DNA from: Thermoplasmata archaeon
GTDB lineage: Archaea; Thermoplasmatota; Thermoplasmata; Lutacidiplasmatales; UBA184
DNA length: 64,000 bases
Reading direction: 5' to 3'
NCBI GenBank assembly: GCA_035622275.1
Contig: DASPVQ010000006.1
Span: 2,455-66,454, forward strand
The translations under genes were made by a program, and so were the position numbers. A model generated the notes under the pieces. The model had not been told where the DNA came from. It ran no database searches and saw nothing but the letters and a program-made list of their open reading frames with translations. Position 1 is the stretch's first letter. Each line of letters opens with the position of its first letter. This document shows positions 4,856 to 35,298 of this stretch, piece after piece.

Positions 4856-5113
4856 TCACCGAGGAGGGTCCCGGCGGTCCTCGCGAACGCCCCGCGCGAA
4901 CCCGGACGCGTAGCACAGCGGAGCCAGCGCCGCGGTGGCCACGATGGCGCCGAGTCCCGCCTCCGCCAACGATGCGGTGGTCTCGGCCGAGCCCAGACCA
5001 TACGCGAGCAACCCCGCCCCGGCAACCAGGAGGACCGCCGCCTCGACCCGAGCGTAAGCGACTATCCGACTCTGAGCTGCGTTGAGCGCAGGCGGGCGCC
5101 AGGACGCCGACAC
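4856..5113 (-). CDS. Small 2-TM membrane protein (hypothetical)
   Basis: Two hydrophobic segments; GTG start just downstream of an A-rich GGTAAAAG box. Confidence 0.4.
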   Translation of the reverse strand: MSASWRPPALNAAQSRIVAYARVEAAVLLVAGAGLLAYGLGSAETTASLAEAGLGAIVATAALAPLCYASGFARGVREDRRDPPR

Positions 5114-5240
5114 GGGCTTTTACCCGCCTTCCCACGTAGGAACGGCACCCGCCCACCCGACGACAGTCGGCGGGAGGGTTCTCCGTTGGGTCATTGGTCG
5201 TCGGGCGTACGAGTAACGCCCCGACGGTCACCCGCCGGGG

Positions 5241-5268
5241 CGGCCAGGTCGTGGTAGTAAGCCCCATT
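5241..5268. repeat. att repeat (left), duplicated rnpB 3' fragment
   Basis: CGGCCAGGTCGTGGTAGTAAGCCCCATT, identical to 9401-9428. Confidence 0.95.
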
Positions 5269-5464
5269 AGTGCGCTCACGTCAGAGAAAGTGCCCGGAAT
5301 GAGCCAAAACCAGGCCGCGACTCGTCGCATCCATCGTCGAAGTGTGCCTTCGGACACCCCCTCCTCCACCGCCCAAAGCATAGTCCAACCCATTCGGGCC
5401 CCGGGAAACCGGGGCCGCCCATCTCTTGAGGGGGAACCACCTCGCCCGAGCGAATCGCGCTCAC

Positions 5465-6580
5465 ATGTCGAAGCGTCGCCGTCAGTCGCAACCTGGGGGT
5501 CCACCAGCAGTCGCGGCGCCATTCTCACCCCCGTCAGATTCGAAGGGGTACAGGGTGCAGATCGGCTGGAATCCTCTACCCGAGGGCGTTGAGAGTGTCA
5601 AGGTAGCGCTCAGTGCCGTGCTGACCGACTCAACCGTTGACTGGGGGAAGCGCGGGCTCGACGAAATCTACGAGGCGTGCGGGCCGGAGCCTGCCAAGGG
5701 ACTTGCCGAGGGGGCGTGCAAGGTTTTGGTGAGGTCGGTTGTGCAGCCGGTAACGTTCCGGAAAGTGGGTGAAATCGAGCACTTCCGCGACGGACCCGAT
5801 ACTCCTGTTTCAGGAAAGGAGGAGGATTTCAAGGTCAGTCCCCCGAACGGGTCCTTCATCCGCCGATTCAGCGAGCCCGATCGGGCTCTGCGAATCGACC
5901 GATTGTTCTCGACAGCTGAACGAATCCGAAACTACTTGGCATACGCTTCGGCGCTCGCGCTCCCCGTAGTCGGAATACTTGTGAGCCGAGATTTTCTGTA
6001 CCCGGTTCGAATGGAATCCTCGCCGAGTCAGTACATGCCGAACGTCGGCGTTCCTTTCTCCACGGAGCGCACGCAGGAATGGTACAAGGTCTTCGAAGAA
6101 GCGTACGCTCGAACGCAGCTGCTGCTGGACACCCTCTCCCCCTCGGAACCCTCAGGGCGTGCCGTTTCCTTGGTCGGTGAGTCGATCTGGACGGCGGACG
6201 TCGAGGAGCGGTTCTTCTACGCCTGGCGGGCCCTTGAGGTCATAGCTTCCAGCGACCTGTCCCGGGCACGAGGCGAGCTGAGCGCCGGCAACCCTAAGCC
6301 CCTCGAGCCGTATCTCGAGCGGGCATCGGCCGCGCTCTCTCAAGGGCACGAATTCCGAATCGACCCCCAGGTCAGAGTCGAGGTTAGCGTGACGTCTCGG
6401 CTATCGGCGGGCGACGCCAAAATCGTACCAAAGCTCTATGAGCTGAGAAACGCGATTGCGCACGGCGAGGTCACCCCGGCTCAGCACTTGGAGGTCTTGA
6501 ATTTGAACCTCCCGATCGTCCGGTTGGCTCGCACGATCGCTGAGACGACTCTGAAGGTACAACCGGGGTCGAGCGGGTGA
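5465..6580 (+). CDS. HEPN-domain protein, ApeA/Abi-like predicted RNase
   Basis: C-terminal FFYAWRALE helix and R-x4-H motif (LRNAIAHG); ATG at 5465 (TTG at 5426 is possible). Confidence 0.75.
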   Translation: MSKRRRQSQPGGPPAVAAPFSPPSDSKGYRVQIGWNPLPEGVESVKVALSAVLTDSTVDWGKRGLDEIYEACGPEPAKGLAEGACKVLVRSVVQPVTFRKVGEIEHFRDGPDTPVSGKEEDFKVSPPNGSFIRRFSEPDRALRIDRLFSTAERIRNYLAYASALALPVVGILVSRDFLYPVRMESSPSQYMPNVGVPFSTERTQEWYKVFEEAYARTQLLLDTLSPSEPSGRAVSLVGESIWTADVEERFFYAWRALEVIASSDLSRARGELSAGNPKPLEPYLERASAALSQGHEFRIDPQVRVEVSVTSRLSAGDAKIVPKLYELRNAIAHGEVTPAQHLEVLNLNLPIVRLARTIAETTLKVQPGSSG

Positions 6581-6844
6581 AGGCCCGGCCCGGAATGTCG
6601 GCGTTACTGAAAGAATCCAGGATTCTTGACCGGGAAGGGTCTCCCGCCGGGCGCGTCTATGCCGGTTGGCCAGCGCGCTCTCCCCTGATTGAGTCGAGTC
6701 GCGGCTACTGACGTCGCAGGAGCCTCGCTCCGAATTGGCCCGGCGAACTCCCTCGCAACCCAGCCCAGATTCGACTCGCTCCCAACGGGGGCGAGGACTT
6801 CCCGAACCAGCTCGACGGTTCTACGGCCCGAAGGGGCGCAACAC

Positions 6845-7801
6845 CTACGAAGCGATCAATCCCAACGCTTCAGCGATCTCTGGCCTCTCAGACGCCCGCT
6901 GCGAATAGGGCCCGAAAATCTCGGGATCGCCTTCGTACTGGCCCTGACTCTGTCGGTGAAAGACTTGAGCGTTCGCCAGCCGCATAACCTGCGTTGTCGG
7001 ATGCCCGTGAGTTGGCGTCCCGTAGATGCCCGAATACGATTCCTGAAGCCCCTTGAGACTCATGAGTGGCAGGCTGTTGGCCTCCAGCGCCCGCCAATAG
7101 TACGCGTTCGTCCAGCGAAGATAAGGGAGCATCATGTTCCAATGCAACACCTCGCGCATGTAGGTGCCACGTTGACGGAGGATGTCACCCATCATCCAAT
7201 GGACGGCTGCGTATTCCTCGGATCGCTGCTCGCGCGCGGCACGGAACGCCGGACCGGGGACGAGCAGCCCTTCCTCCTTCGCCGCGTATCCCAGCTCGGT
7301 CAACAGACCGAGATACGCATCGAAGTTGGAGCCTGAGCGATACCGTCGCCTCGACTTTGTGACGTCAACCCGACCATCCGCCGACAGGTCGGTCAAAATG
7401 CTCTGGAGGGGCCCCATTGCGACCTCCACCACAGAAACATGAACCAGGCGCTCGAAAAGGTCGGGTAGCAGTGCGCTCTCGGCTGAACTCGCGAGTCGCC
7501 TGTAGGCACCGCGCGCGCTCACTGAAAGCTCCCTCGAGCCTGGGCCATGGACAACCCCGCGTCGACCTCGCCGTTGCACATGGTATACGAGTCCAGTATC
7601 GAGTACGAGACGTCTCGAGATCCCGCCGGGGCGGCGGGCATCCTCAACCTCCTCTTGCGTTTCCACGAAGCAAGACCATTCGTTGGGTGAACGACGCTTG
7701 ATTCTGAGATTGCGAGCCACATTCCACCGCAGGAACGCTTGCAGCGAAACATCGGATCGAACGATCGACAGCGGGGCCGACAGGGTCGTCAAGACTTCCA
7801 C
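6845..7801 (-). CDS. Hypothetical protein, possibly with winged-helix-like segments
   Basis: 318-aa ORF in the island; its start overlaps the end of the upstream ORF (7789-7801); wHTH resemblance (YLGLLTELGY...LLVPG) judged by eye only. Confidence 0.6.
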   Translation of the reverse strand: MEVLTTLSAPLSIVRSDVSLQAFLRWNVARNLRIKRRSPNEWSCFVETQEEVEDARRPGGISRRLVLDTGLVYHVQRRGRRGVVHGPGSRELSVSARGAYRRLASSAESALLPDLFERLVHVSVVEVAMGPLQSILTDLSADGRVDVTKSRRRYRSGSNFDAYLGLLTELGYAAKEEGLLVPGPAFRAAREQRSEEYAAVHWMMGDILRQRGTYMREVLHWNMMLPYLRWTNAYYWRALEANSLPLMSLKGLQESYSGIYGTPTHGHPTTQVMRLANAQVFHRQSQGQYEGDPEIFGPYSQRASERPEIAEALGLIAS

Positions 7802-24998: not shown

Positions 24999-25025
24999 TT
25001 ATAACCACACCCGAGTGTGTAAATT
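24999..25025 (+). promoter_or_regulatory. sufD promoter: TATA box plus GTGTGTAAAT motif
   Basis: TTATAA-10 nt-GTGTGTAAATT, 2 nt before ATG 25028; includes a CACAC-N4-GTGTG inverted repeat. Confidence 0.6.
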
Positions 25026-26461: not shown

Positions 26462-28942
26462 CTACCCGACCGCGCCGGTCATCTCGAGCTGGATCAGCCG
26501 GTTGAGCTCCAGCGCGTAGTCGACCGGGAGCTCCTTCGCGAACTCGGCCAGGAAGCCCATCAGGATCAGGTGGATCGCGTCGGACTCGTTGAGCCCCCGG
26601 CTCATCAGGTAGAAGATCTGCTCCTCCCCGATCTTCCCGACGACGGCCTCGTGGGTGATGGTCGCGTCCTCCTCGTGGATCTCGTTGTACGGGTAGGTGT
26701 CGGAGCGGCCCAGCTCGTCGGGCAGGAGGGCGTCGCACCGCACCGCCGCCTTGACGCCGGTCGCGCCCGGGGCGACGTGGAGGAGGCCGCGGTAGCTCGT
26801 CTGGCCGCCGCGGATCGCGATCGACTTCGCGATGATCTTGCTCGAGGTGTCGGGGGCGGAGTGGACCGCCTTGGCGCCCGAGTCGATGATCTGGCCCTCG
26901 CTCGCGAAGGCGACCGACAGGATGTCGGCGCGCGCGCCGCGGCCGCGCAGGTAGACCGACGGGTACTTCATCGTCACCTTCGAGCCCATGTTGCCGTCGA
27001 CCCACTCGACCAGCGAGCTCTCGTAACCGACCGCCCGCTTCGTGACCAGGTTGTAGACGTTCTTCGACCAGTTCTGGATCGTCGTGTACCGTAGCTTCGC
27101 GTACGGCTCGGCGACCACCTCAACGACCGCCGCGTGCAGCGAGTCGGTGGAGTAGACGGGCGCCGTGCAGTTGTGTACCGAGAATCCCTTGACGAGGTAG
27201 GTGTTGTTCGAGCCCACCACGTGGAAGTTGTGGACGTTCCCGCGGTACGGGGTCCGCCGGATCTTCCGGATCGGGACGAGGAACGCGTTCCCGGCGCGCC
27301 GCACGGCGTGCGCCCGCTTTCCGACCTGGTGGTAGACGATGTACGTCTTCCGGTGGTGGACCTTGCGGCCGCTCTTCATCGTCTCGTCGAACGGCTCGCG
27401 AACGTTGATCGTCGCGAATACCCCCTGGCGCGCCTGCAGCTCCTGAACTTGGAACGCGACCTGCCGGGAGATCGTCATGACACGGTGCACGGTCCCGCTC
27501 CGCTGGTAGACGTTACCGTCGCCGTTGTAGTACTTCTCGAGGAGAATGCGCTGCTTCGCCGGCGGCAGCTCCATCACGGCCTTGCTGAGACGCTTCTCAC
27601 CGGCGTTCTTGCCGGCGTGCTCGACGCAGAAGCTGTAGAGCTCCCGAGAGTAGACGCCCACGGTCGCGGCGTGCTTCTTCGGTTCGGGATAGCTCCACGC
27701 CTGCTCGCCCGTGAGCTCCCGGATCGCTGCGGAGACCTCCGCGACGTACTCCCGCTCGTCGCGGTGGAAGGTGAACGTGACCGCGTCGCACCCGTTGATC
27801 TGCTGAGCGCACCCTTCGGCGAGGTAGTAGCCGAGCAGTGACAAGGCCGCGGGGCTGAACCGGGGGTCGTCGTGCTCGGTCCGGTTGATCGGGTAGTGGA
27901 CGAAGTCGCCCGGAACGAGCTTGCCGGCCGGCACGAACTCGGGCTGAGCCGCCTCCAGACGCCGCGGGTCGACGTCCGAGAGCGCCCGGTTCGTCCGCCG
28001 GCAGACGCTGACCTTGCGCCGGGGGACGCAGAGAACCGGATGCTCCGGGGTCAACTGGAACGCGTTCCCGACCGAGACCGGAGTGACGCCGATCAGCTCG
28101 CCATCGAACGGTCGGACCATCGTCTTCTCGACCGTGGTCTCTGCGCCGTCGCTGTTGAGAACCGGCTGCCCCGCGGAGATCTGCTCGATCGGCGTGAGCT
28201 CGTCGCCGACAAGGACCTCCTCGCCGACCGGAAGGCAGCCCTCAAGGTAATGCACTTTCGAGCCTTTGTCACCGATGATCAGTGTCCGTTCAAACTGACC
28301 CACGTTCTTAGCGTTAATCCGGAAGTACGCCTGGAGCGGGATCTTGCAGTCGACGTTCGGCGGGATGTAGACGAAGCTTCCGCCGGACCATACCGCGCTA
28401 TTGAGGGCGGCGAACTTGTTGTCGTTGTACGGGACGATCCGACCGAAGTACTTCCGGACGAGGTCCGGATGCTCGCGGACGGCCGAGTCCGTGTCGCAGA
28501 AGATGATGCCCTGCGCCGCGAGGTCCTCGCGGAGCTTGTGGTACATCGTGCCGCTGTCGTACTGCGCGCCGACGCCGCCGAAGTACTCGCGTTCGGCCTT
28601 CGGGATCCCGAGCTTTTCGAACGTGTTCTTGATGTCGGCGGGAAGGTCGTCCCAGCTGCGCTTGGTCTCGCCCTCGAGCAGCGGATTCGCGTAGTACGTG
28701 TACGCGTCGAAGTCGATGTCGCTGAGGTCGGGCCCCCAGTCGGGCATCGGTCGCTCGACGAAGTGGGCGTACGCCCGGAGGCGGTACTCCCGCATCCAGT
28801 CGGGTTCCTTCTTGAAATCGGAGATCTGCTCTACGACCTCGCGAGACAACCCCTTCGCGATCCGAAGGCGGTACGTCTCGGGATTCTTGAAATCGTAACG
28901 CGTGTAGTCGAGCGGCGTGATCTCCTGCGCCGTTTGCGCCAT
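26462..28942 (-). CDS. sufB: Fe-S cluster assembly protein SufB, intein-containing
   Basis: FAALNSAVWSGGSF, GQFERTL, YLEG|...|CTAP and YLMSRGL motifs; ATG at 28942. Confidence 0.96.
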   Translation of the reverse strand: MAQTAQEITPLDYTRYDFKNPETYRLRIAKGLSREVVEQISDFKKEPDWMREYRLRAYAHFVERPMPDWGPDLSDIDFDAYTYYANPLLEGETKRSWDDLPADIKNTFEKLGIPKAEREYFGGVGAQYDSGTMYHKLREDLAAQGIIFCDTDSAVREHPDLVRKYFGRIVPYNDNKFAALNSAVWSGGSFVYIPPNVDCKIPLQAYFRINAKNVGQFERTLIIGDKGSKVHYLEGCLPVGEEVLVGDELTPIEQISAGQPVLNSDGAETTVEKTMVRPFDGELIGVTPVSVGNAFQLTPEHPVLCVPRRKVSVCRRTNRALSDVDPRRLEAAQPEFVPAGKLVPGDFVHYPINRTEHDDPRFSPAALSLLGYYLAEGCAQQINGCDAVTFTFHRDEREYVAEVSAAIRELTGEQAWSYPEPKKHAATVGVYSRELYSFCVEHAGKNAGEKRLSKAVMELPPAKQRILLEKYYNGDGNVYQRSGTVHRVMTISRQVAFQVQELQARQGVFATINVREPFDETMKSGRKVHHRKTYIVYHQVGKRAHAVRRAGNAFLVPIRKIRRTPYRGNVHNFHVVGSNNTYLVKGFSVHNCTAPVYSTDSLHAAVVEVVAEPYAKLRYTTIQNWSKNVYNLVTKRAVGYESSLVEWVDGNMGSKVTMKYPSVYLRGRGARADILSVAFASEGQIIDSGAKAVHSAPDTSSKIIAKSIAIRGGQTSYRGLLHVAPGATGVKAAVRCDALLPDELGRSDTYPYNEIHEEDATITHEAVVGKIGEEQIFYLMSRGLNESDAIHLILMGFLAEFAKELPVDYALELNRLIQLEMTGAVG
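27170..28237 (-). mobile_element. Intein (356 aa) with LAGLIDADG homing endonuclease
   Basis: Starts CLPVG and ends VHN followed by +1 Cys; block B TPEHP; endonuclease blocks LLGYYLAEG and YYNGDG. Confidence 0.95.
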
Positions 28943-28955
28943 GAGCCCCTCGGGC

Positions 28956-28981
28956 AATTCGAGCACCCCGGCGTATTTAAA
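28956..28981 (-). promoter_or_regulatory. sufB promoter: TATA box plus degenerate motif
   Basis: TTTAA-10 nt-GTGCTCGAATT, same spacing as the sufD and sufR boxes. Confidence 0.45.
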
Positions 28982-29101: not shown

Positions 29102-30328
29102 CTAGGCGAAGACTCCCGCCACCCGGACCAGGCCGTCGACGAGGCGGTCGATCTCGGTCTCGGTGTTGTACAGGTAGGGGCTCGCACGCGTGAGGGCGGG
29201 AACGTTCAGGCGCTCCATCAGCGGCTGGCAGCAGTGGTGCCCCGCGCGGACCTCGATGCCTTCGCCGTCGAGCAGCTGGGCCACGTCGTGGGGATGGGCG
29301 CCCCGCATCGAGAACGACAGGACGCCCTGGCGCTCCTCGGACGCCTCGGGACCGTAGACGCGGACCCGGTCCCCGAGACGCGACTCGAGCCCGGCGACCG
29401 CGCGCTCGAAGAGCCGACGCTCGTGGGCCGCGAGGTCCTGCCAGCCGGCCGCCTCGAGATAGTCGAGCGCCGCGGCGAGGCCGATCGCCCCGGCGACGTT
29501 CGGGGTGCCGGCTTCGAAGCGGCCCGGCGGCTCGCGGTAGCCGACCCTGTCCTGGTGCACCTCGCTGATCATCTCCCCGCCCCCGGCGGTCGGCGGCATC
29601 CGCGCGAGCAGTTCCCGGCGTCCCCAGAGCACGCCGATGCCCATCGGTCCGAGGACCTTGTGGCCGGAGAAGGCCAGCAGGTCCGCCCCGAGCGCGCCGA
29701 CGTCCAGGGCTCGGTGCGGGGCCGACTGCGCCGCGTCGACCACAACGACGGCGCCCACCGCATGCGCCCGGTCGGCGATCTCCCGGACCGGGTTCACGGT
29801 GCCGAGGACGTTCGAGGCGTGCGTGACCGCCACGACCTTCGTGCGACGGTCCAGCAGCCGGTCGAGCTGGTCGAGCCGGAGCCGGCCGGCGTCGTCCACG
29901 TCCACGAACTCCAGGTCGATGCCCTTCTGTTCGCGCAGCAGGTGCCACGGCACGATGTTGGAGTGGTGCTCCATCACGGTGGTCACGACCCGATCGCCCC
30001 GCTGCAGCACGAGCCGCCCGAGGCTCGCCGCAGCGACGTTCAGCGCCTCCGTGGTGCCTCGTACGAACACGACCTCGTCGGCGTCCTTCGCGCGGAGGAA
30101 CCGTCGGACGCGGTCCCGCGCGGCCTCGTAGGCGTCGGTCGCCTCGACGCTCAGGGCGTAGACCCCGCGGTGCACGTTCGAGTTGTGCTCCGCGTAGAAG
30201 CGGTCCTCGGCGTCCAGCACACACTGCGGCTTCTGGGAGGTCGCCGCCGAGTCGAGGTAGACGAGGGGCCGGCCGTTGACCGTCCTCCGCAGGATCGGGA
30301 AGTCCGCCCGGATCCGATCGACGTCCAT
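29102..30328 (-). CDS. sufS: Cysteine desulfurase (group II)
   Basis: YLDSAATSQKP, FSGHK and RAGHHC motifs. Confidence 0.96.
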   Translation of the reverse strand: MDVDRIRADFPILRRTVNGRPLVYLDSAATSQKPQCVLDAEDRFYAEHNSNVHRGVYALSVEATDAYEAARDRVRRFLRAKDADEVVFVRGTTEALNVAAASLGRLVLQRGDRVVTTVMEHHSNIVPWHLLREQKGIDLEFVDVDDAGRLRLDQLDRLLDRRTKVVAVTHASNVLGTVNPVREIADRAHAVGAVVVVDAAQSAPHRALDVGALGADLLAFSGHKVLGPMGIGVLWGRRELLARMPPTAGGGEMISEVHQDRVGYREPPGRFEAGTPNVAGAIGLAAALDYLEAAGWQDLAAHERRLFERAVAGLESRLGDRVRVYGPEASEERQGVLSFSMRGAHPHDVAQLLDGEGIEVRAGHHCCQPLMERLNVPALTRASPYLYNTETEIDRLVDGLVRVAGVFA

Positions 30329-30359: not shown

Positions 30360-31136
30360 CTACGCGGCGCCGACGAGGCCGACCTTCACCCAGTCGTACC
30401 CCTTCGCCTCGAGCTCCTGCGCGAGCTTCTGGCCGCCGGAGAGGGCGATGACGCCATCGACCATCACGTGCACGCTGTCGGGATGGAGGAACTGCAGAAT
30501 CCGCTGGTAGTGGGTGATCACGAGGATACCGGCGTCCGGCCGGCGCAACTTCGCGACGGTCTCCCCCACCGCGCGCACGGCGTCGATGTCGAGTCCGGAG
30601 TCCGGCTCGTCGAGGACCGCGAAGCGCGGATCCAGCGTCGCCATCTGCAGCACCTCGACGCGCTTCTTCTCGCCCCCCGAGAACCCCTCGTTGAGGGAGC
30701 GCTTCAGCAGGGCCGGATCCATCCCGAGGTAGTCGAGGTGGGTCTTGAGGTCCGCATCGTACTGGGACATCGTGCTCGACGCGTCGGCGTGCCGCATCGA
30801 GTAGGTCGTCCAGAGGAACTTCGACAACGATAGCCCGGAGACCTCCTGCGGGTACTGGAACCCAAGAAAGAGCCCCGCCTTGGAACGCTGGTCGACGGGC
30901 AACGCGAGGAGGTCCTTGCCATCGAGCCGGGCGGTCCCCTGCGTCACTTTGTACTTGGGGTGTCCCATGAGGGCGTAGGCGAGCGTGCTTTTGCCCGAGC
31001 CGTTCGGGCCCATCAGGGCCGACAGCTCGCCCGAGCGGAGGCTCAGCGTGACACCCTTGAGAATCTCCTTGCCGGCGACCTCGGCGTGAAGGTTTTCTAC
31101 GACCAGCGTGTGATGGGGGCCCACGGGTTCCGTCAT
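30360..31136 (-). CDS. sufC: SUF ABC ATPase
   Basis: GPNGSGKST, FSGGEKKR, LDEPDSGLDID. Confidence 0.96.
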   Translation of the reverse strand: MTEPVGPHHTLVVENLHAEVAGKEILKGVTLSLRSGELSALMGPNGSGKSTLAYALMGHPKYKVTQGTARLDGKDLLALPVDQRSKAGLFLGFQYPQEVSGLSLSKFLWTTYSMRHADASSTMSQYDADLKTHLDYLGMDPALLKRSLNEGFSGGEKKRVEVLQMATLDPRFAVLDEPDSGLDIDAVRAVGETVAKLRRPDAGILVITHYQRILQFLHPDSVHVMVDGVIALSGGQKLAQELEAKGYDWVKVGLVGAA

Positions 31137-31163
31137 GCTCCGAGGGAGAACGAGCCGATACCG

Positions 31164-31191
31164 TTATTTAAGCATGGCGCGGTGTGTAAAT
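31164..31191 (+). promoter_or_regulatory. sufC/sufR divergent promoter with GTGTGTAAAT motif
   Basis: TTATTTAA-10 nt-GTGTGTAAAT, the same 10-mer and spacing as upstream of sufD. Confidence 0.6.
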
Positions 31192-31235: not shown

Positions 31236-31883
31236 ATGAGCGCCTCCGCGAGCGGCACGCTAGAAGGGACGCGGGGCCGGATCCTGGAGGAGCTCGCCTC
31301 CGCCCCCCGGACCGCGCGCGACCTCGCCAAGAAGCTCGGGATCCAGGAGAGCGCCGCCCGAGGGCATCTCGAGCGGATGGAGGACAAGGGGCTCGTGGTC
31401 CCCTCCTTCCGGCGGGAGGGGGTCGGTCGCCCTCGCAAGCGCTACCTGCTCACCGACCAGGGCCAGGACCTGTTCCCGAAGAAGTACGACCTGATCCTCG
31501 ACAGCGTGGTCGACGAGCTGCTCGCCCGCGAGGGCGAAGGGTTCGTGAGCGCCCTCTTCGCGGAGGCGGCTCGCCGGATGGCCGGCCAGATCGCCAAGGA
31601 GATTCCGAAGGGCGGTTCGACCGAGGAGAAGGCGCGCCATCTGGTCGCGGCCCTCAACCACCTCGGCTTCCGCTCCTCGACCGAGCGCAGCGCGGACGGC
31701 CACCTGAGGATCGTGCGCGCCAACTGCATCTTCCGCCACAGCGCGCTCACGCATCCCTACCTCCTCTGCGACGTGTTCGACAAGAACCTCACCGAGGCGC
31801 TCCTCGGCGAGGTCGGGGTCGACCTCGAGGACTCGATCGGTCGCGGGGGGATGCGCTGTACGCATCTGATCCAGCTCCGCTGA
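31236..31883 (+). CDS. SufR-like Fe-S-sensing HTH transcriptional regulator
   Basis: N-terminal wHTH (GRPRKRYLLT), C-terminal Cys triad (NCIF, LCD, RC); divergent from sufC. Confidence 0.8.
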   Translation: MSASASGTLEGTRGRILEELASAPRTARDLAKKLGIQESAARGHLERMEDKGLVVPSFRREGVGRPRKRYLLTDQGQDLFPKKYDLILDSVVDELLAREGEGFVSALFAEAARRMAGQIAKEIPKGGSTEEKARHLVAALNHLGFRSSTERSADGHLRIVRANCIFRHSALTHPYLLCDVFDKNLTEALLGEVGVDLEDSIGRGGMRCTHLIQLR

Positions 31884-32815
31884 GCGGATCGGCGTCCGCG
31901 CTGCGACCCCGAGGACCGGACCCCGACGACCCCCTCCTCGGCGCGGTCGGCGGCACGCCGCTCGTTCCGCTCGCGCGACTGCCCGAGCCGTGTCTCGGCC
32001 AGTTCGAGCTGTGGGGGAAGGCCGAGTTCCTCAACCCGAGCGGCTCGGTCAAAGATCGCGCGGCGCTCGAGATCGTCCGGTCGGGTCTCTCGAGCGGCAC
32101 CCTGGCGGAGGGCCGGACCCTGATCGATGCGTCGAGCGGGAACACGGCCGTCGCCTATGCGATGCTCGGTGCGCGGCTCGGCTTTGCGGTCGAGCTGTGC
32201 CTCCCGCGCACCGTGAGCCCGGAGCGGCTCGAACGGATCTCCCGCTACGGCGCGACCGTGGTCTTCACCGACCCCGCCGAGGGGACCGATGGCGCGCAGC
32301 GGGAGGCGAAGCGTCGCGCCGCGGCCGCGCCGGATCGCTACTTCTACCCCGACCAGTACAACCATCCGGCGAACCCGCTCGCGCACTACCGCGGCACGGG
32401 GCCCGAGATCTGGGAGCAGAGCCGCGGGCGCCTGACGCATTTCGTGGCCGGCGTCGGGACGGGGGGAACGGTGTCGGGCGCGGGACGATTCCTCAAGGAG
32501 AAGCGGGCGGACCTGAGGGTGATCGGAGTGGAGCCGTCGGGCCCGCTGCACGGCCTGGAAGGACTCAAGCACCTTCCGACCGCGCTACGACCGTCGACGT
32601 ACGATGCGCGCGTGGTCGACGAGACCGTCCGCATCGAGACGGAGGCGGCCCAGCGGATGCAGCGGCGGCTCGCGACCGAGGAGGGACTCGCGGTCGGGGT
32701 GTCGTCCGGCGCCGCGGTCCTCGCCGCGCTCGATGTCGGCGCCCGGGCGCCGGGTGCGGTGATCGTGACGGTGCTGCCGGACGCCGGGCACCTCGCCGGA
32801 GGCGCGACCGCGTGA
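31880..32815 (+). CDS. PLP-dependent cysteine synthase (CysM/CysK family); start codon non-canonical or uncertain
   Basis: In-frame GGTPLV, KAEFLNPSGSVKDR, SSGNT, DQYNHPAN and GVGTGGT; no ATG/GTG/TTG upstream of the PLP lysine; CTG at 31880 or 31901. Confidence 0.85.
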   Translation: MSGSASALRPRGPDPDDPLLGAVGGTPLVPLARLPEPCLGQFELWGKAEFLNPSGSVKDRAALEIVRSGLSSGTLAEGRTLIDASSGNTAVAYAMLGARLGFAVELCLPRTVSPERLERISRYGATVVFTDPAEGTDGAQREAKRRAAAAPDRYFYPDQYNHPANPLAHYRGTGPEIWEQSRGRLTHFVAGVGTGGTVSGAGRFLKEKRADLRVIGVEPSGPLHGLEGLKHLPTALRPSTYDARVVDETVRIETEAAQRMQRRLATEEGLAVGVSSGAAVLAALDVGARAPGAVIVTVLPDAGHLAGGATA

Positions 32816-33267
32816 GGGCGATCGAGCTGCCCTCGCCGCTGGTCGAGGCGATGGGCCGCCATGCCCGTGCGAGCTACCCGGAGGAGTGCTGCGGCTTCCT
32901 GATCGGCGCGCTCGATCCCCCCGAGCCGACCGGGCGGCGCCGCCTCTTGGAGGTCGAGCCGGCCGCCAACGAGTTCGACGGCGAGCGAAGTCGGCGCTTC
33001 ATGATCCGGCCACGGGACCTCCTCGAGGCCGAGCGCCGGCGCGAGGGTACGGACCGGATGGTCGCCGGCTTCTACCACTCCCACCCGGACCACCCGGCCC
33101 GCCCGTCGGCGTTCGACCAGGAGCACGCGCTCCCGTGGTACACGTACATCGTCCTCTCGGTCACCGCGCAGGAGGTGCCGACCCTGGGCGCGTTCGAGCT
33201 CGACGAGGCCACCCGCATCTTCCACGAAGTGCCGGTCGTCCCGCCCGCGGCACTGGACCGCGGGTAA
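32812..33267 (+). CDS. JAB/MPN+ (Mec-like) metalloprotease
   Basis: YPEECCG and YHSHP-x-H-x4-PS-x2-D motifs; GTG overlaps the upstream TGA. Confidence 0.92.
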   Translation: MRAIELPSPLVEAMGRHARASYPEECCGFLIGALDPPEPTGRRRLLEVEPAANEFDGERSRRFMIRPRDLLEAERRREGTDRMVAGFYHSHPDHPARPSAFDQEHALPWYTYIVLSVTAQEVPTLGAFELDEATRIFHEVPVVPPAALDRG

Positions 33268-33304
33268 CGCAGAGCCTATGAGGAGTGTCGGTCCGGTAGG
33301 GTCG

Positions 33305-34792
33305 ATGGGGCGCGTCACCGTCCGCCTGCCCACGCCGCTGCGCGCGTTCGCGGGCGGCCACGCCGAGGTCGCCTCGGAGGGAGCGACGGTCGGCGCGGTC
33401 GTGCAGGGGGTCGCGAACGCCTACCCCGGGCTGCGGCCCCACCTGTTCACGGCGGACGGCGCCCTGCGCAACTTCGTCAGCGTCTACCTCAACGACGAGG
33501 ACGTCCGCTACCTCGAGCGGGACGCGACGCCGGTGAAGGACCGGGACGTCGTGTCGATCGTCCCGGCGATCGCGGGCGGGGCACCGAGCTCGGTCCAGCG
33601 CGCGCCCGCGCCGAACCCGCTCGCGGTGCTCCCGAACGCGCCGGCCGACACGTTCGGCCGGGACGAGCTGCGCCGCTACAGCCGTCACCTCCTCCTGCCC
33701 GAGGTCGGCGTCGAGGGGCAGAAGGCGCTGCGGCGGGCCAAGGTGCTGCTCGTCGGCGCGGGCGGCCTCGGCTCGCCCACCGCGCTCTACCTCACGGCGG
33801 CCGGCGTCGGCGAGATCGGGCTCGTCGATTTCGACGAGGTCGATCTCTCGAACCTGCAGCGCCAGGTCCTCTACACGACCAACGACCTCGGGCGGCCCAA
33901 GACCCAGGCCGCCCGCGAGCGCCTCGAGGCGCTCAACCCGGGCACCCGGATCGTGCCGGTCGCCGCACGCCTCACCGCGGAGAACGCGCTCGACGTCCTT
34001 GCGCCGTACGACGTGATCGTCGACGGGACCGACAACTTCCCGACCCGCTACCTCGTCAACGACGCCTGCGTCCTGCTCGGTAAGCCGAACGTCTACGGCT
34101 CGATCTACCGCTTCGAGGGCCAGGCGAGCGTGTTCGATGCGCGGACCGGTCCCTGCTACCGGTGCCTCTACGCCGAGCCCCCGCCCGCCGACCTCGTGCC
34201 CTCGTGCGCGGAGGGCGGCGTCCTCGGCGTCCTGCCCGGGCTGATCGGCCTGATCCAGGCGACCGAGACGGTGAAGCTGATCCTGGGCGCCGGCGAGCCG
34301 CTCGTGGGCCGACTGCTGCTCTACGACGCGCTCGCGATGCGCTTCCGCGAGCTCACGCTCCGCAAGAACCCGGCGTGCGTGATCTGCTCCCCGAACGCGA
34401 CCCAGCACGGGCTGATCGATTACCCCGCCTTCTGCGGTGTCCCCGCCCCGGGCGCCACGAGCGAATCGGCGGGCCTGCCCGAGATCTCGCCGGAGGAGCT
34501 GCGCGACGAGCTCGCCGGCCCGAGCCCGCCGATGCTGCTCGACGTGCGCGAGCCGAACGAGTGGGAGATCGTCCATCTCCCGCAGGCCCACCTGATCCCG
34601 CGCGCGCAACTGCCCGACCGGCTCAACGAGATCACCAGCGCCCAGCGGGTCGTCGTCTACTGCCGGACGGGCGGCCGTTCCGCCCAGGCGACCCGCCTGC
34701 TGCTCGACCTCGGATTCACGAACGTGCGCAACCTCTCCGGCGGCATCACCGCCTGGGCGCAGCGGATCGACCCGTCGCTGCCGACGTACTAG
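33305..34792 (+). CDS. Fusion: ThiS/MoaD-like Ubl + MoeB/ThiF E1-like adenylyltransferase + rhodanese
   Basis: Ubl ends IVPAIAGG (33580); RYSRH, GAGGLG, DGTDN, CYRC and SCAEGG; rhodanese LLDVRE and YCRTGGRS. Confidence 0.93.
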   Translation: MGRVTVRLPTPLRAFAGGHAEVASEGATVGAVVQGVANAYPGLRPHLFTADGALRNFVSVYLNDEDVRYLERDATPVKDRDVVSIVPAIAGGAPSSVQRAPAPNPLAVLPNAPADTFGRDELRRYSRHLLLPEVGVEGQKALRRAKVLLVGAGGLGSPTALYLTAAGVGEIGLVDFDEVDLSNLQRQVLYTTNDLGRPKTQAARERLEALNPGTRIVPVAARLTAENALDVLAPYDVIVDGTDNFPTRYLVNDACVLLGKPNVYGSIYRFEGQASVFDARTGPCYRCLYAEPPPADLVPSCAEGGVLGVLPGLIGLIQATETVKLILGAGEPLVGRLLLYDALAMRFRELTLRKNPACVICSPNATQHGLIDYPAFCGVPAPGATSESAGLPEISPEELRDELAGPSPPMLLDVREPNEWEIVHLPQAHLIPRAQLPDRLNEITSAQRVVVYCRTGGRSAQATRLLLDLGFTNVRNLSGGITAWAQRIDPSLPTY

Positions 34793-35298
34793 GCGCGGGC
34801 CGCGGCGGCCGGCGCGCCGTCATCCACCTCGAGCGGCCCGGCGTACGAGCGCACTCGCCGGGAGAGCTCGCGCGCAAACGCGGCCGGGTCCCGGGGCGAC
34901 ACGAACAGCGGGATCTCTCCCGCCGTCACCAGGACCCCGGCGGAGTCGGTGTGGATGGCGTCGAACGCGCCGACGCGCGGACTCCACATCCGGCCCCGCC
35001 AGCCCCATCCCCCGAAGAAGCCGACCGGCGAGAGGTCCCGGAAGCTCAGGATCTCGATGCGGCGCACGTCCCGCAGCGCGACGTTCCGGGAGCCGAACAG
35101 GCGCAGGGCCGACATCGCGGCCCGATCGATGCGGTAGGTCGTGGAGAGGTACCGGGCGAGCAGCACGAGGGTCAGCACGATCACGGCCTCGATCAGCCAC
35201 GGATACATGACGACCGGAGAGCGGACGCCGAGGAAGTACAGGATCAGCACGACGAACGCGTAGACACCGATCGTGGCAGCCGAGAGGTGGCCGTGCAT
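34789..35298 (-). CDS. Membrane protein with bacterial PH-like domain
   Basis: Two TM helices, then a FFGGWGWRG...VSPRDPAAF pattern. Confidence 0.6.
   Translation of the reverse strand: MHGHLSAATIGVYAFVVLILYFLGVRSPVVMYPWLIEAVIVLTLVLLARYLSTTYRIDRAAMSALRLFGSRNVALRDVRRIEILSFRDLSPVGFFGGWGWRGRMWSPRVGAFDAIHTDSAGVLVTAGEIPLFVSPRDPAAFARELSRRVRSYAGPLEVDDGAPAAAARA

Follow-up and report, generated by a model that had tools for sequence, protein, structure and literature searches.

A probable CysO/CysM/Mec+/MoeZ-type cysteine operon of a Thermoplasmata archaeon in which the sulfur carrier forms the N-terminal part of the E1-rhodanese chain

In sum, our comparative data point toward a protein-thiocarboxylate pathway of cysteine synthesis in a Thermoplasmata archaeon, in which the ubiquitin-like (Ubl) sulfur carrier is translated as the N-terminal part of its own activating enzyme. 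The operon in question consists of four head-to-tail genes on the forward strand (positions 31236 to 34792) that encode a SufR-like regulator, a CysM-like enzyme, a JAB protease, and a fusion of carrier, E1, and rhodanese (Table 1). It lies in a stretch of 64,000 nucleotides of contig DASPVQ010000006.1 (GenBank assembly GCA_035622275.1), which was analysed at its full length and is called the window here; its guanine-plus-cytosine content is high (~72%). A preliminary description of this DNA had proposed a JAB gene directly upstream of a single-chain Ubl-E1-rhodanese and a cysteine synthase gene before that, and open reading frames (ORFs) and Pfam matches agree with this layout. It had also related the operon to the CysO/CysM/Mec+/MoeZ pathway, which is biochemically established in Mycobacterium tuberculosis. 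All comparative tests fit this reading: the carrier is CysO-like, the E1 is MoeZ-like, the JAB protein is intact, and the gene order CysM-JAB-fusion is conserved. We put the probability that the operon encodes cysteine synthesis of this type, with a carrier that is made at the N terminus of the E1-rhodanese that activates it, at about 0.65.

The identities of the protein parts are the first link in this argument. The fusion has 495 amino acids, counted from the ATG at 33305, and matches ThiS (residues 6 to 92), ThiF (125 to 358), and Rhodanese (395 to 486) of Pfam. The best solved relative of the carrier domain is M. tuberculosis CysO (3dwg_C, E = 2.7e-16), to which it aligns end to end up to the C-terminal Gly-Gly; the next one is a chain of the ThiS/MoaD family (4n6e_B), which we take to be a carrier serving thiosugar synthesis. 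Among the NCBIfam models, the E1 part matches NF005646 (MoeB/MoeZ) with 491 bits and NF005902 (MoeZ) with 479 bits, which is under the equivalog cut-off of 647. The model of the archaeal SAMP-activating E1 (UbaA) gives 317 bits, far below the scores of the bacterial MoeB/MoeZ models; matches to SAMP1, UbaA, and desampylase were found under threshold. In our alignment, the ATP motif GxGGLG, the NLQRQ motif, two CxxC pairs, and Cys301 are invariant, as are C453, G456, R458, and S459 of the rhodanese domain. The JAB protein has an intact E...HxHx7SxxD signature, with EECCGF and HSHPDHPARPSAFD motifs, which is seen both in the translation and in the alignment to its best solved relative, 2kcq, a protein of the Mov34/MPN/PAD-1 family. 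The CysM-like protein matches TIGR01138 (cysM) with 296.7 bits (cut-off, 394.2 bits).

The second link is the junction between carrier and E1. The Gly-Gly of the carrier, placed by the preliminary description at 33575 to 33580 and inside the fusion, was verified at the level of the codons: it corresponds to residues 91 and 92 of 495, and the gene product as encoded has no free C-terminal carboxylate. Adenylation needs a free carboxylate, and since the Gly-Gly is internal, cleavage would be required to generate a free carrier end. In an alignment of 150 homologues, the junction IVPA[IV]AGG is invariant, and the Gly-Gly is present in 149 of them, the sole exception being a frameshifted entry (P0124). 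The following 10 to 35 residues are rich in Pro, Ser, and Ala and have no position that is kept; conservation restarts at ELRRYSRHLLLPEVG. The bacterial fused forms have likewise kept the Gly-Gly junction. AlphaFold2 modelled carrier residues 1 to 88 (predicted local distance difference test [pLDDT] of 70 to 92) as well as the E1 and rhodanese parts with confidence, but gave a pLDDT of <50 to residues 89 to 112, which make up the AGG tail and the linker (predicted template-modelling score of the whole model, 0.58). The linker is thus predicted to be disordered.

It might be objected that the fusion is an artefact of assembly, a frameshift, or a decaying pseudogene of two adjacent genes. Indeed, the two genes of split relatives overlap by a few bases, so that one indel could fuse them, and P0124 is visibly frameshifted. 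However, a Logan contig of 2592 nt from a peat metagenome, made by a different assembler, is identical to positions 31460 to 34051 of the window (0 differences, depth of 47), and a second peat sample contained identical low-depth contigs for 33109 to 33380 and 33476 to 33691, across the junction. Furthermore, the three-domain architecture was found in at least 150 protein clusters (60 to 100% identity), in which the frame is open, in archaea and in bacteria, with all catalytic residues kept, so that the fusion is evidently maintained by selection. The chance of an artefact is therefore negligible, and we regard this explanation as excluded.

The third link comes from relatives in which the carrier is made differently. 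In one family of Thermoplasmatota (f15), carrier and E1 are split genes: the free carrier ends with ...SVAGG-stop (once with ...GGC-stop) exactly at the fusion point, and the end of its gene overlaps the start codon of the E1 gene. On a tree of E1-rhodanese sequences (a quick maximum-likelihood search, unrooted and with a weak backbone), the state changes between fused and split at least nine times. We tallied 87 loci with a carrier gene next to an E1 gene and scored JAB within 3 kb. The Gly-Gly was blocked by the fused E1 in 62 loci, of which 57 of 61 evaluable ones had JAB, and by a tail of 1 to 14 amino acids in 20 loci (JAB in 18 of 18 evaluable); it was free, as Gly-Gly-stop, in 5 loci (JAB in 0 of 4 evaluable). 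Hence, JAB accompanied 75 of 79 blocked versus 0 of 4 free carriers (Fisher's exact test, p = 3.8e-5, with the loci treated as unrelated). JAB was also present in eight fused loci in which CysM was not detected within 3 kb. Among the Thermoplasmatota genomes tested, a Prok-JAB match of at least 55 bits was found in all 17 with the fused and all 8 with the split form, and no JAB match above 25.5 bits was found in the MoeZ-only Thermoplasmatota genomes. A CysM-family gene is linked to the fusion in 50 of the 62 fused loci, in both domains of life.

The tails of the split carriers are an observation in their own right. Cys-rich tails follow the Gly-Gly in four split loci of Acidobacteriota/Terriglobia (L077, L088, L101, and L114, with GGLNLRCICR, GGCARRCICR, GGRPLRCACS, and GGSAFACGAGRDLCCN), and short tails occur elsewhere among the split bacterial relatives (GGC, GGV, GGARDRV); all evaluable tailed loci adjoin JAB.

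Because an invariant Gly-Gly precedes a hypervariable and apparently disordered linker, because fused and split forms interchange, and because JAB adjoins when the Gly-Gly is blocked, we consider release of the carrier by JAB to be the most likely mechanism, and a distinctly probable one; cysteine would then be set free by the reaction established for Mec. The idea of the preliminary description that JAB frees the Ubl from the polyprotein thus finds support in junction conservation, in switching between fused and split genes, and in JAB adjacency, all of them comparisons of sequences.

In our model, the SufR-like regulator would control one promoter from which all four genes are transcribed. 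JAB would cut the 495-residue precursor directly after Gly92, which would give a 92-residue carrier with a terminal Gly-Gly and a MoeZ-type E1-rhodanese. The E1 would then adenylate the new C terminus of the carrier, and the persulfide on the rhodanese cysteine would convert it to the thiocarboxylate. The CysM-like enzyme would join the thiocarboxylate to an activated serine, probably O-phosphoserine. After an S-to-N acyl shift, the same JAB protein would hydrolyse the carrier-cysteine amide, which would yield cysteine and regenerate the carrier. The released E1 presumably also serves MoaD and a second free carrier with a Gly-Gly end.

The last step of this model follows from the content of the genome (G000, 97% complete). 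It has a single E1 gene of the ThiF family, the fused one, and two free carriers that end with Gly-Gly, of which one is MoaD, encoded beside MoaE, and the other ends with SIAGG. A second JAB paralogue has 178 amino acids (places of these genes in the genome: C6, C7:~89.2 kb, C27:~43.6 kb, and C20:~134 kb). As the only E1, the fused enzyme cannot be dedicated to cysteine synthesis alone, and with two free carriers in the genome its E1 moiety must act in trans on other carriers. Such a role in trans is known from MoeZR of mycobacteria (PMC3227635). A search of this genome, at its 97% completeness, gave no hit for the serine acetyltransferase CysE, which favours O-phosphoserine as the probable serine donor.

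A more far-reaching version of the model, which we hold to be unlikely although it is imaginable, takes the fusion as a zymogen. The tethered carrier would occupy or block the only E1 of the cell, and the cut by JAB would be a master switch for the syntheses of cysteine and molybdenum cofactor (Moco), tRNA thiolation, and any SAMP-like conjugation. If this were true, JAB would be supplied from the same transcript as the SufR-like, presumably iron-sulfur (Fe-S)-sensing, regulator, and the ratio of carrier to E1 would be fixed at 1:1.

Several points weigh against cysteine synthesis on a JAB-released carrier. The statistic of JAB adjacency ignores phylogeny, and it is confounded with CysM, since the four Gly-Gly-stop loci have no CysM either. 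Within 3 kb of four fused loci, JAB is missing; two of these loci are bacterial, and the other two are in the Thermoplasmatota genomes G029 and G066, which have JAB genes elsewhere. CysO of M. tuberculosis ends at its Gly-Gly, and yet Mec+ adjoins; therefore, the presence of JAB alone is no proof of processing. Furthermore, the CysM-like protein is under the trusted cut-off of every NCBIfam equivalog, and the genome has two further paralogues of the CysK/CysM family. The protein is nearer to enterobacterial CysM (216 bits) than to CysM of M. tuberculosis (171 bits), a comparison with solved structures that is uninformative as to the type of CysM. Carrier dependence and the use of O-phosphoserine are thus putative traits of the CysM-like protein.

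How else could the operon be understood? The Ubl domain might never be cut and might stay on the E1 for good, for docking or regulation, as in the Ubl-ThiF proteins of Campylobacter; the true substrates would then be the two free Gly-Gly carriers that the genome encodes, and JAB would only be a hydrolase of the Mec or desampylase type. There is a precedent, since Iyer et al. (2006) described uncleaved Ubl-ThiF fusions beside a solo ThiS (PMC1779556). However, the domain fused here is ThiS/CysO-like, in contrast to the distinct Ubl of the Campylobacter type, and the operon has no solo ThiS but an adjacent JAB. An invariant Gly-Gly in front of a freely varying linker is hard to explain without the need for a free C terminus, and close relatives make the same domain as a free protein that ends at that very Gly-Gly. 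We therefore regard an uncut Ubl as quite improbable.

That the operon is chiefly a module for sulfur mobilisation or SAMP-like conjugation, serving Moco synthesis, tRNA thiolation, or sampylation, also appears unlikely to us. Here, the carrier would be the modifier, JAB the deconjugase, and the CysM-like enzyme would use free sulfide without the carrier. The only E1 of the genome is in the fusion and must serve MoaD and other carriers, and the sub-threshold matches to SAMP1, UbaA, and desampylase point in the same direction. A catalogue of archaeal fusions from 2024 took the fusion as MoaD-MoeBR of Moco synthesis (PMC11237513). The CysM-like protein, moreover, resembles CysM enzymes that use sulfide or thiosulfate. 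Nevertheless, the genome has a separate MoaD-MoaE pair and, with the second JAB paralogue, a protein available for general deconjugation. The frequent linkage of CysM in both domains of life matches the mycobacterial pathway with its established biochemistry. In any case, a module of this kind is compatible with cysteine synthesis on a JAB-released carrier and does not exclude it.

The regulator gene that leads the operon aligns with the NCBIfam model of SufR (TIGR02702) over profile positions 5 to 208 of 208 but reaches only 48 bits, with a cut-off of 178.8. The cysteine pattern C-x13-C-x29-C is kept in 9 of 10 regulator homologues, which come from five families. The gene is divergent from sufC-sufS-sufB, and it adjoins suf genes in the window, in G025 and G281, two genomes of the same genus with the same layout of sufC, sufS, and sufB, and in G176 and G018. 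In G018 it is beside sufB, and in G176 beside sufC-sufS; the cysteine operon is on another contig in both, although both contigs of G176 are short and could adjoin in the genome. In other families, the contexts of the regulator vary. The 10-mer GTGTGTAAAT occurs twice in the window, at 25015 to 25024 in the promoter of sufD and at 31182 to 31191 (0.11 occurrences expected by chance), each time downstream of a TATA-like box; the second site is between sufC and the regulator gene, and there TATA box and 10-mer are kept in G025 and G281 as well. The SufR-like protein might use this element as its operator.

The preliminary description had called the operon SufR-led and had linked cysteine supply to the Fe-S status. 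A leader gene with a full-length alignment to SufR is indeed present; its score is below the cut-off, and the arrangement had to be rejected as a general feature, since only the genus of the window and two close metagenome-assembled genomes (MAGs; L052 and L053) have the regulator before CysM. The gene is best read as that of a suf regulator which, in this lineage alone, came to lead the cysteine operon, and coupling of cysteine supply to the Fe-S status is plausible as a feature local to it.

The four genes are tightly packed, and the starts of two of them had to be revised. JAB starts with a GTG at 32812 that overlaps the stop codon of CysM, and the presumed start of CysM is within the regulator gene; with these overlapping ends, the genes are packed like a translationally coupled operon. 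The CysM frame has its first ATG, GTG, or TTG only at 32162, with no earlier canonical start in frame, and a start there would cost the protein ~100 conserved residues. A CTG at 31856, 28 nt within the regulator gene, aligns with an ATG in G281 and with a GTG in G025, and it (31856 to 31858) is also present in the metagenome contig. The CTG could be an uncommon start codon, could tie translation to that of the gene upstream, or could lower expression.

Table 1. Features of the operon and of the neighbouring suf genes (positions in the window)
Feature	Position	Strand	Basis and remarks
sufB, intein-containing, divergent from operon	26462-28966	-	ORF and Pfam
sufS, divergent from operon	29102-30328	-	ORF and Pfam
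sufC, divergent from operon	30360-31136	-	ORF and Pfam
Promoter region of operon	31163..31191	+	TATA-like TTATTTAA, then GTGTGTAAAT, putative operator
SufR-like winged-helix regulator, 215 aa	31236..31883	+	Pfam HTH_5/HTH_20; C-terminal C-x13-C-x29-C
CysM-family pyridoxal phosphate-dependent cysteine synthase	31856..32815	+	PALP, E = 4.7e-67; probable CTG start inferred from relatives
JAMM/MPN+ (Prok-JAB) metalloprotease, 151 aa	32812..33267	+	PF14464, E = 2.6e-21; GTG start
Sulfur-carrier domain (CysO-like, ubiquitin fold), residues 1-92 with the end ...IVPAIAGG	33305..33580	+	PF02597 ThiS, E = 1.1e-13
Internal Gly-Gly codons GGC GGG, residues 91-92	33575..33580	+	Coordinates verified; JAB cut predicted directly 3'
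Pro/Ser/Ala-rich linker, ~24 residues	33581..33652	+	Hypervariable among homologues; low pLDDT
MoeZ/MoeB-type E1 adenylyltransferase domain	33653..34486	+	PF00899, E = 8.9e-84
C-terminal rhodanese (sulfurtransferase) domain, active-site Cys453 (CRTGGRS)	34487..34792	+	PF00581, E = 4e-21

Two neighbours of the operon may be mentioned here. The sufB gene is an ORF of 834 amino acids with an intein (CLPVGEEV...VHNC) between canonical SufB blocks, and its N-terminal SufB part is 81 to 85% identical to those of G025 and G281. On the other side, convergent with the fusion gene, a predicted membrane protein of 169 amino acids is encoded at 34789 to 35298 (reverse strand); it has no match in Pfam or NCBIfam, and it is kept between the fusion and ABCE1 in G025, G281, and G176.

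To place the operon, we surveyed 301 Thermoplasmatota genomes and scanned the species genomes of GTDB. A full-length fused match was present in all six genomes of the family of the window and in members of eight other families of Thermoplasmatota; the other families of the window's own class have distant ThiF genes only. The full layout, with sufB-sufS-sufC divergent from regulator-CysM-JAB-fusion, was found in G025 and G281 and in the Thermoplasmata MAGs L052 and L053. Other families of Thermoplasmatota have CysM-JAB-fusion, JAB-fusion, or a permuted order, all of them without the regulator. In the GTDB scan, the in-frame fused CysM-JAB-fusion operon was found in Gemmatimonadota, Acidobacteriota, Chloroflexota, Bacteroidota, Verrucomicrobiota, Elusimicrobiota, Eisenbacteria, Kryptoniota, and Armatimonadota, as well as in Moritella sp. 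PE36 (a record not marked as a MAG) and in a MAG of Nitrososphaerales. The fused proteins of these taxa are 51 to 59% identical to the protein of the window. The fused arrangement is common in soil bacteria and neither specific to archaea nor new.

The module of carrier, E1, JAB, and CysM is rearranged frequently. A Pseudomonas sp. (P0184; L051, positions 5001 to 6860) has JAB, Ubl, E1, and rhodanese in one chain; the next genes encode a PALP protein and a hexapeptide-repeat protein, possibly an acetyltransferase. Teredinibacter waterburyi (P0170) has JAB-Ubl-rhodanese-E1 in one chain. In these four-domain proteins, the system would process itself. In a cluster from gut Firmicutes, JAB overlaps the Ubl-E1-rhodanese gene, with no CysM nearby. 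In the archaeal genome G143 (L034), carrier and JAB are on the strand opposite to CysM-E1, and Thermoplasmata archaeon YP1.bin82 (L096) has a MoeZ-type E1 (69% identity) without a fused or adjacent carrier.

An archaeal invention of the fusion is ruled out, because at least ten phyla of bacteria have the fused operon and the archaeal sequences fall within bacterial ones. In the tree, most archaeal sequences form one clade (SH-like approximate likelihood ratio test, 90, a moderate value) nested among bacteria, and f15 forms a second clade. This topology is compatible with one to three transfers from bacteria to archaea. A bacterial origin, for which the preliminary description had suggested a test, agrees with the nesting in this weakly supported and unrooted tree.

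What is new in this system is limited: the operon type, fused bacterial operons, and the archaeal fusion are already known. The mycobacterial-type pathway corresponds to types 4c and 4d in the operon classification of Iyer, Burroughs & Aravind 2006, of which type 4c combines ThiS/MoaD, E1-rhodanese, JAB, and cysteine synthase, and these authors predicted JAB processing at the terminal glycine of the carrier (PMC1779556). Makarova & Koonin 2010 had noted Ubl-E1-TBP fusions in both archaea and bacteria (PMC2948915). The catalogue of 2024 lists moaD fusions with moeBR, mainly from unclassified Euryarchaeota and Poseidoniales, and suggests an acidobacterial origin from identities of >55% to Acidobacteria (mSystems, PMC11237513). 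Our literature search found no experimental study of a CysO/MoeZ-type fusion. Within the literature searched (Burroughs, Iyer & Aravind 2009 is outside it), the CysO-type reading, the near-constant CysM-JAB context, the invariant junction, the blocked Gly-Gly in most members of the operon family, and a fusion that holds the only E1 of an archaeon appear to be undescribed.

The finding leaves the known chemistry unchanged. It re-reads a fusion family catalogued under MoaD-MoeBR and Moco as one of CysO-type cysteine synthesis. That most members of the operon family are blocked, by fusion or by a tail, points to processing as the norm, with the free-ended CysO of M. tuberculosis as an exception. 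If JAB does release the carrier, the fusion would be a compact natural case of a Ubl protein that is first made in one chain with the enzyme activating it and then matured by a JAMM protease, in parallel to eukaryotic ubiquitin, which is made as fusion precursors. For the organism, the finding hints at a common regulation of cysteine supply, Fe-S assembly, and the only E1. The system is easily testable, since it has only four small genes and occurs in many bacteria, among them Moritella sp. PE36.

Compared with known systems, the regulator shares with SufR of cyanobacteria and actinobacteria the winged-helix N terminus, three C-terminal cysteines, the divergent orientation to a suf operon, and a motif at two promoters of the suf region, but it is not an equivalog by its score, has an archaeal host, and is co-oriented and overlapping with a cysteine operon in this family alone. 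With the MoaD-MoeBR family, the fusion shares the three-domain architecture, and the bacterial origin proposed there agrees with our survey and tree; unlike here, the accessible text of the catalogue gives a Moco reading and makes no mention of CysO identity, the CysM-JAB context, the invariant junction, or release by JAB (PMC11237513).

Carriers that have to be trimmed or cut before use are known from other systems as well. QbsE is trimmed by QbsD and HcyS-Ala by HcyD. Furthermore, the JAMM protease DR0402 of Deinococcus radiodurans cuts a natural MoaD-MoaE fusion, which exposes the C-terminal Gly, and HvJAMM1 of Haloferax volcanii cuts linear SAMP1 fusions such as SAMP1-MoaE (PMC8832034); MoaX of M. 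tuberculosis is active only after a cut between Gly82 and Ser83 (PMC4326299). Natural MoaD-MoaE fusions do not work before a JAMM protease has cut directly behind their Gly-Gly. As in these JAMM-processed fusions and tailed carriers, the carrier is N-terminal to its partner, its Gly-Gly is blocked, and a JAMM gene is present. In contrast to them, the carrier is joined here to the activating E1, where they have MoaE or a tail of one or two residues. With the M. tuberculosis pathway, finally, the operon shares all four activities, encoded together: a Gly-Gly carrier, an E1-rhodanese, a JAMM hydrolase, and an enzyme of the CysM family. It differs in its archaeal host, in the SufR-like leader, in a CysM-like protein below the equivalog cut-offs, and, above all, in a carrier that is fused to the N terminus of the E1, so that the Gly-Gly is internal and an extra proteolytic step would be needed.

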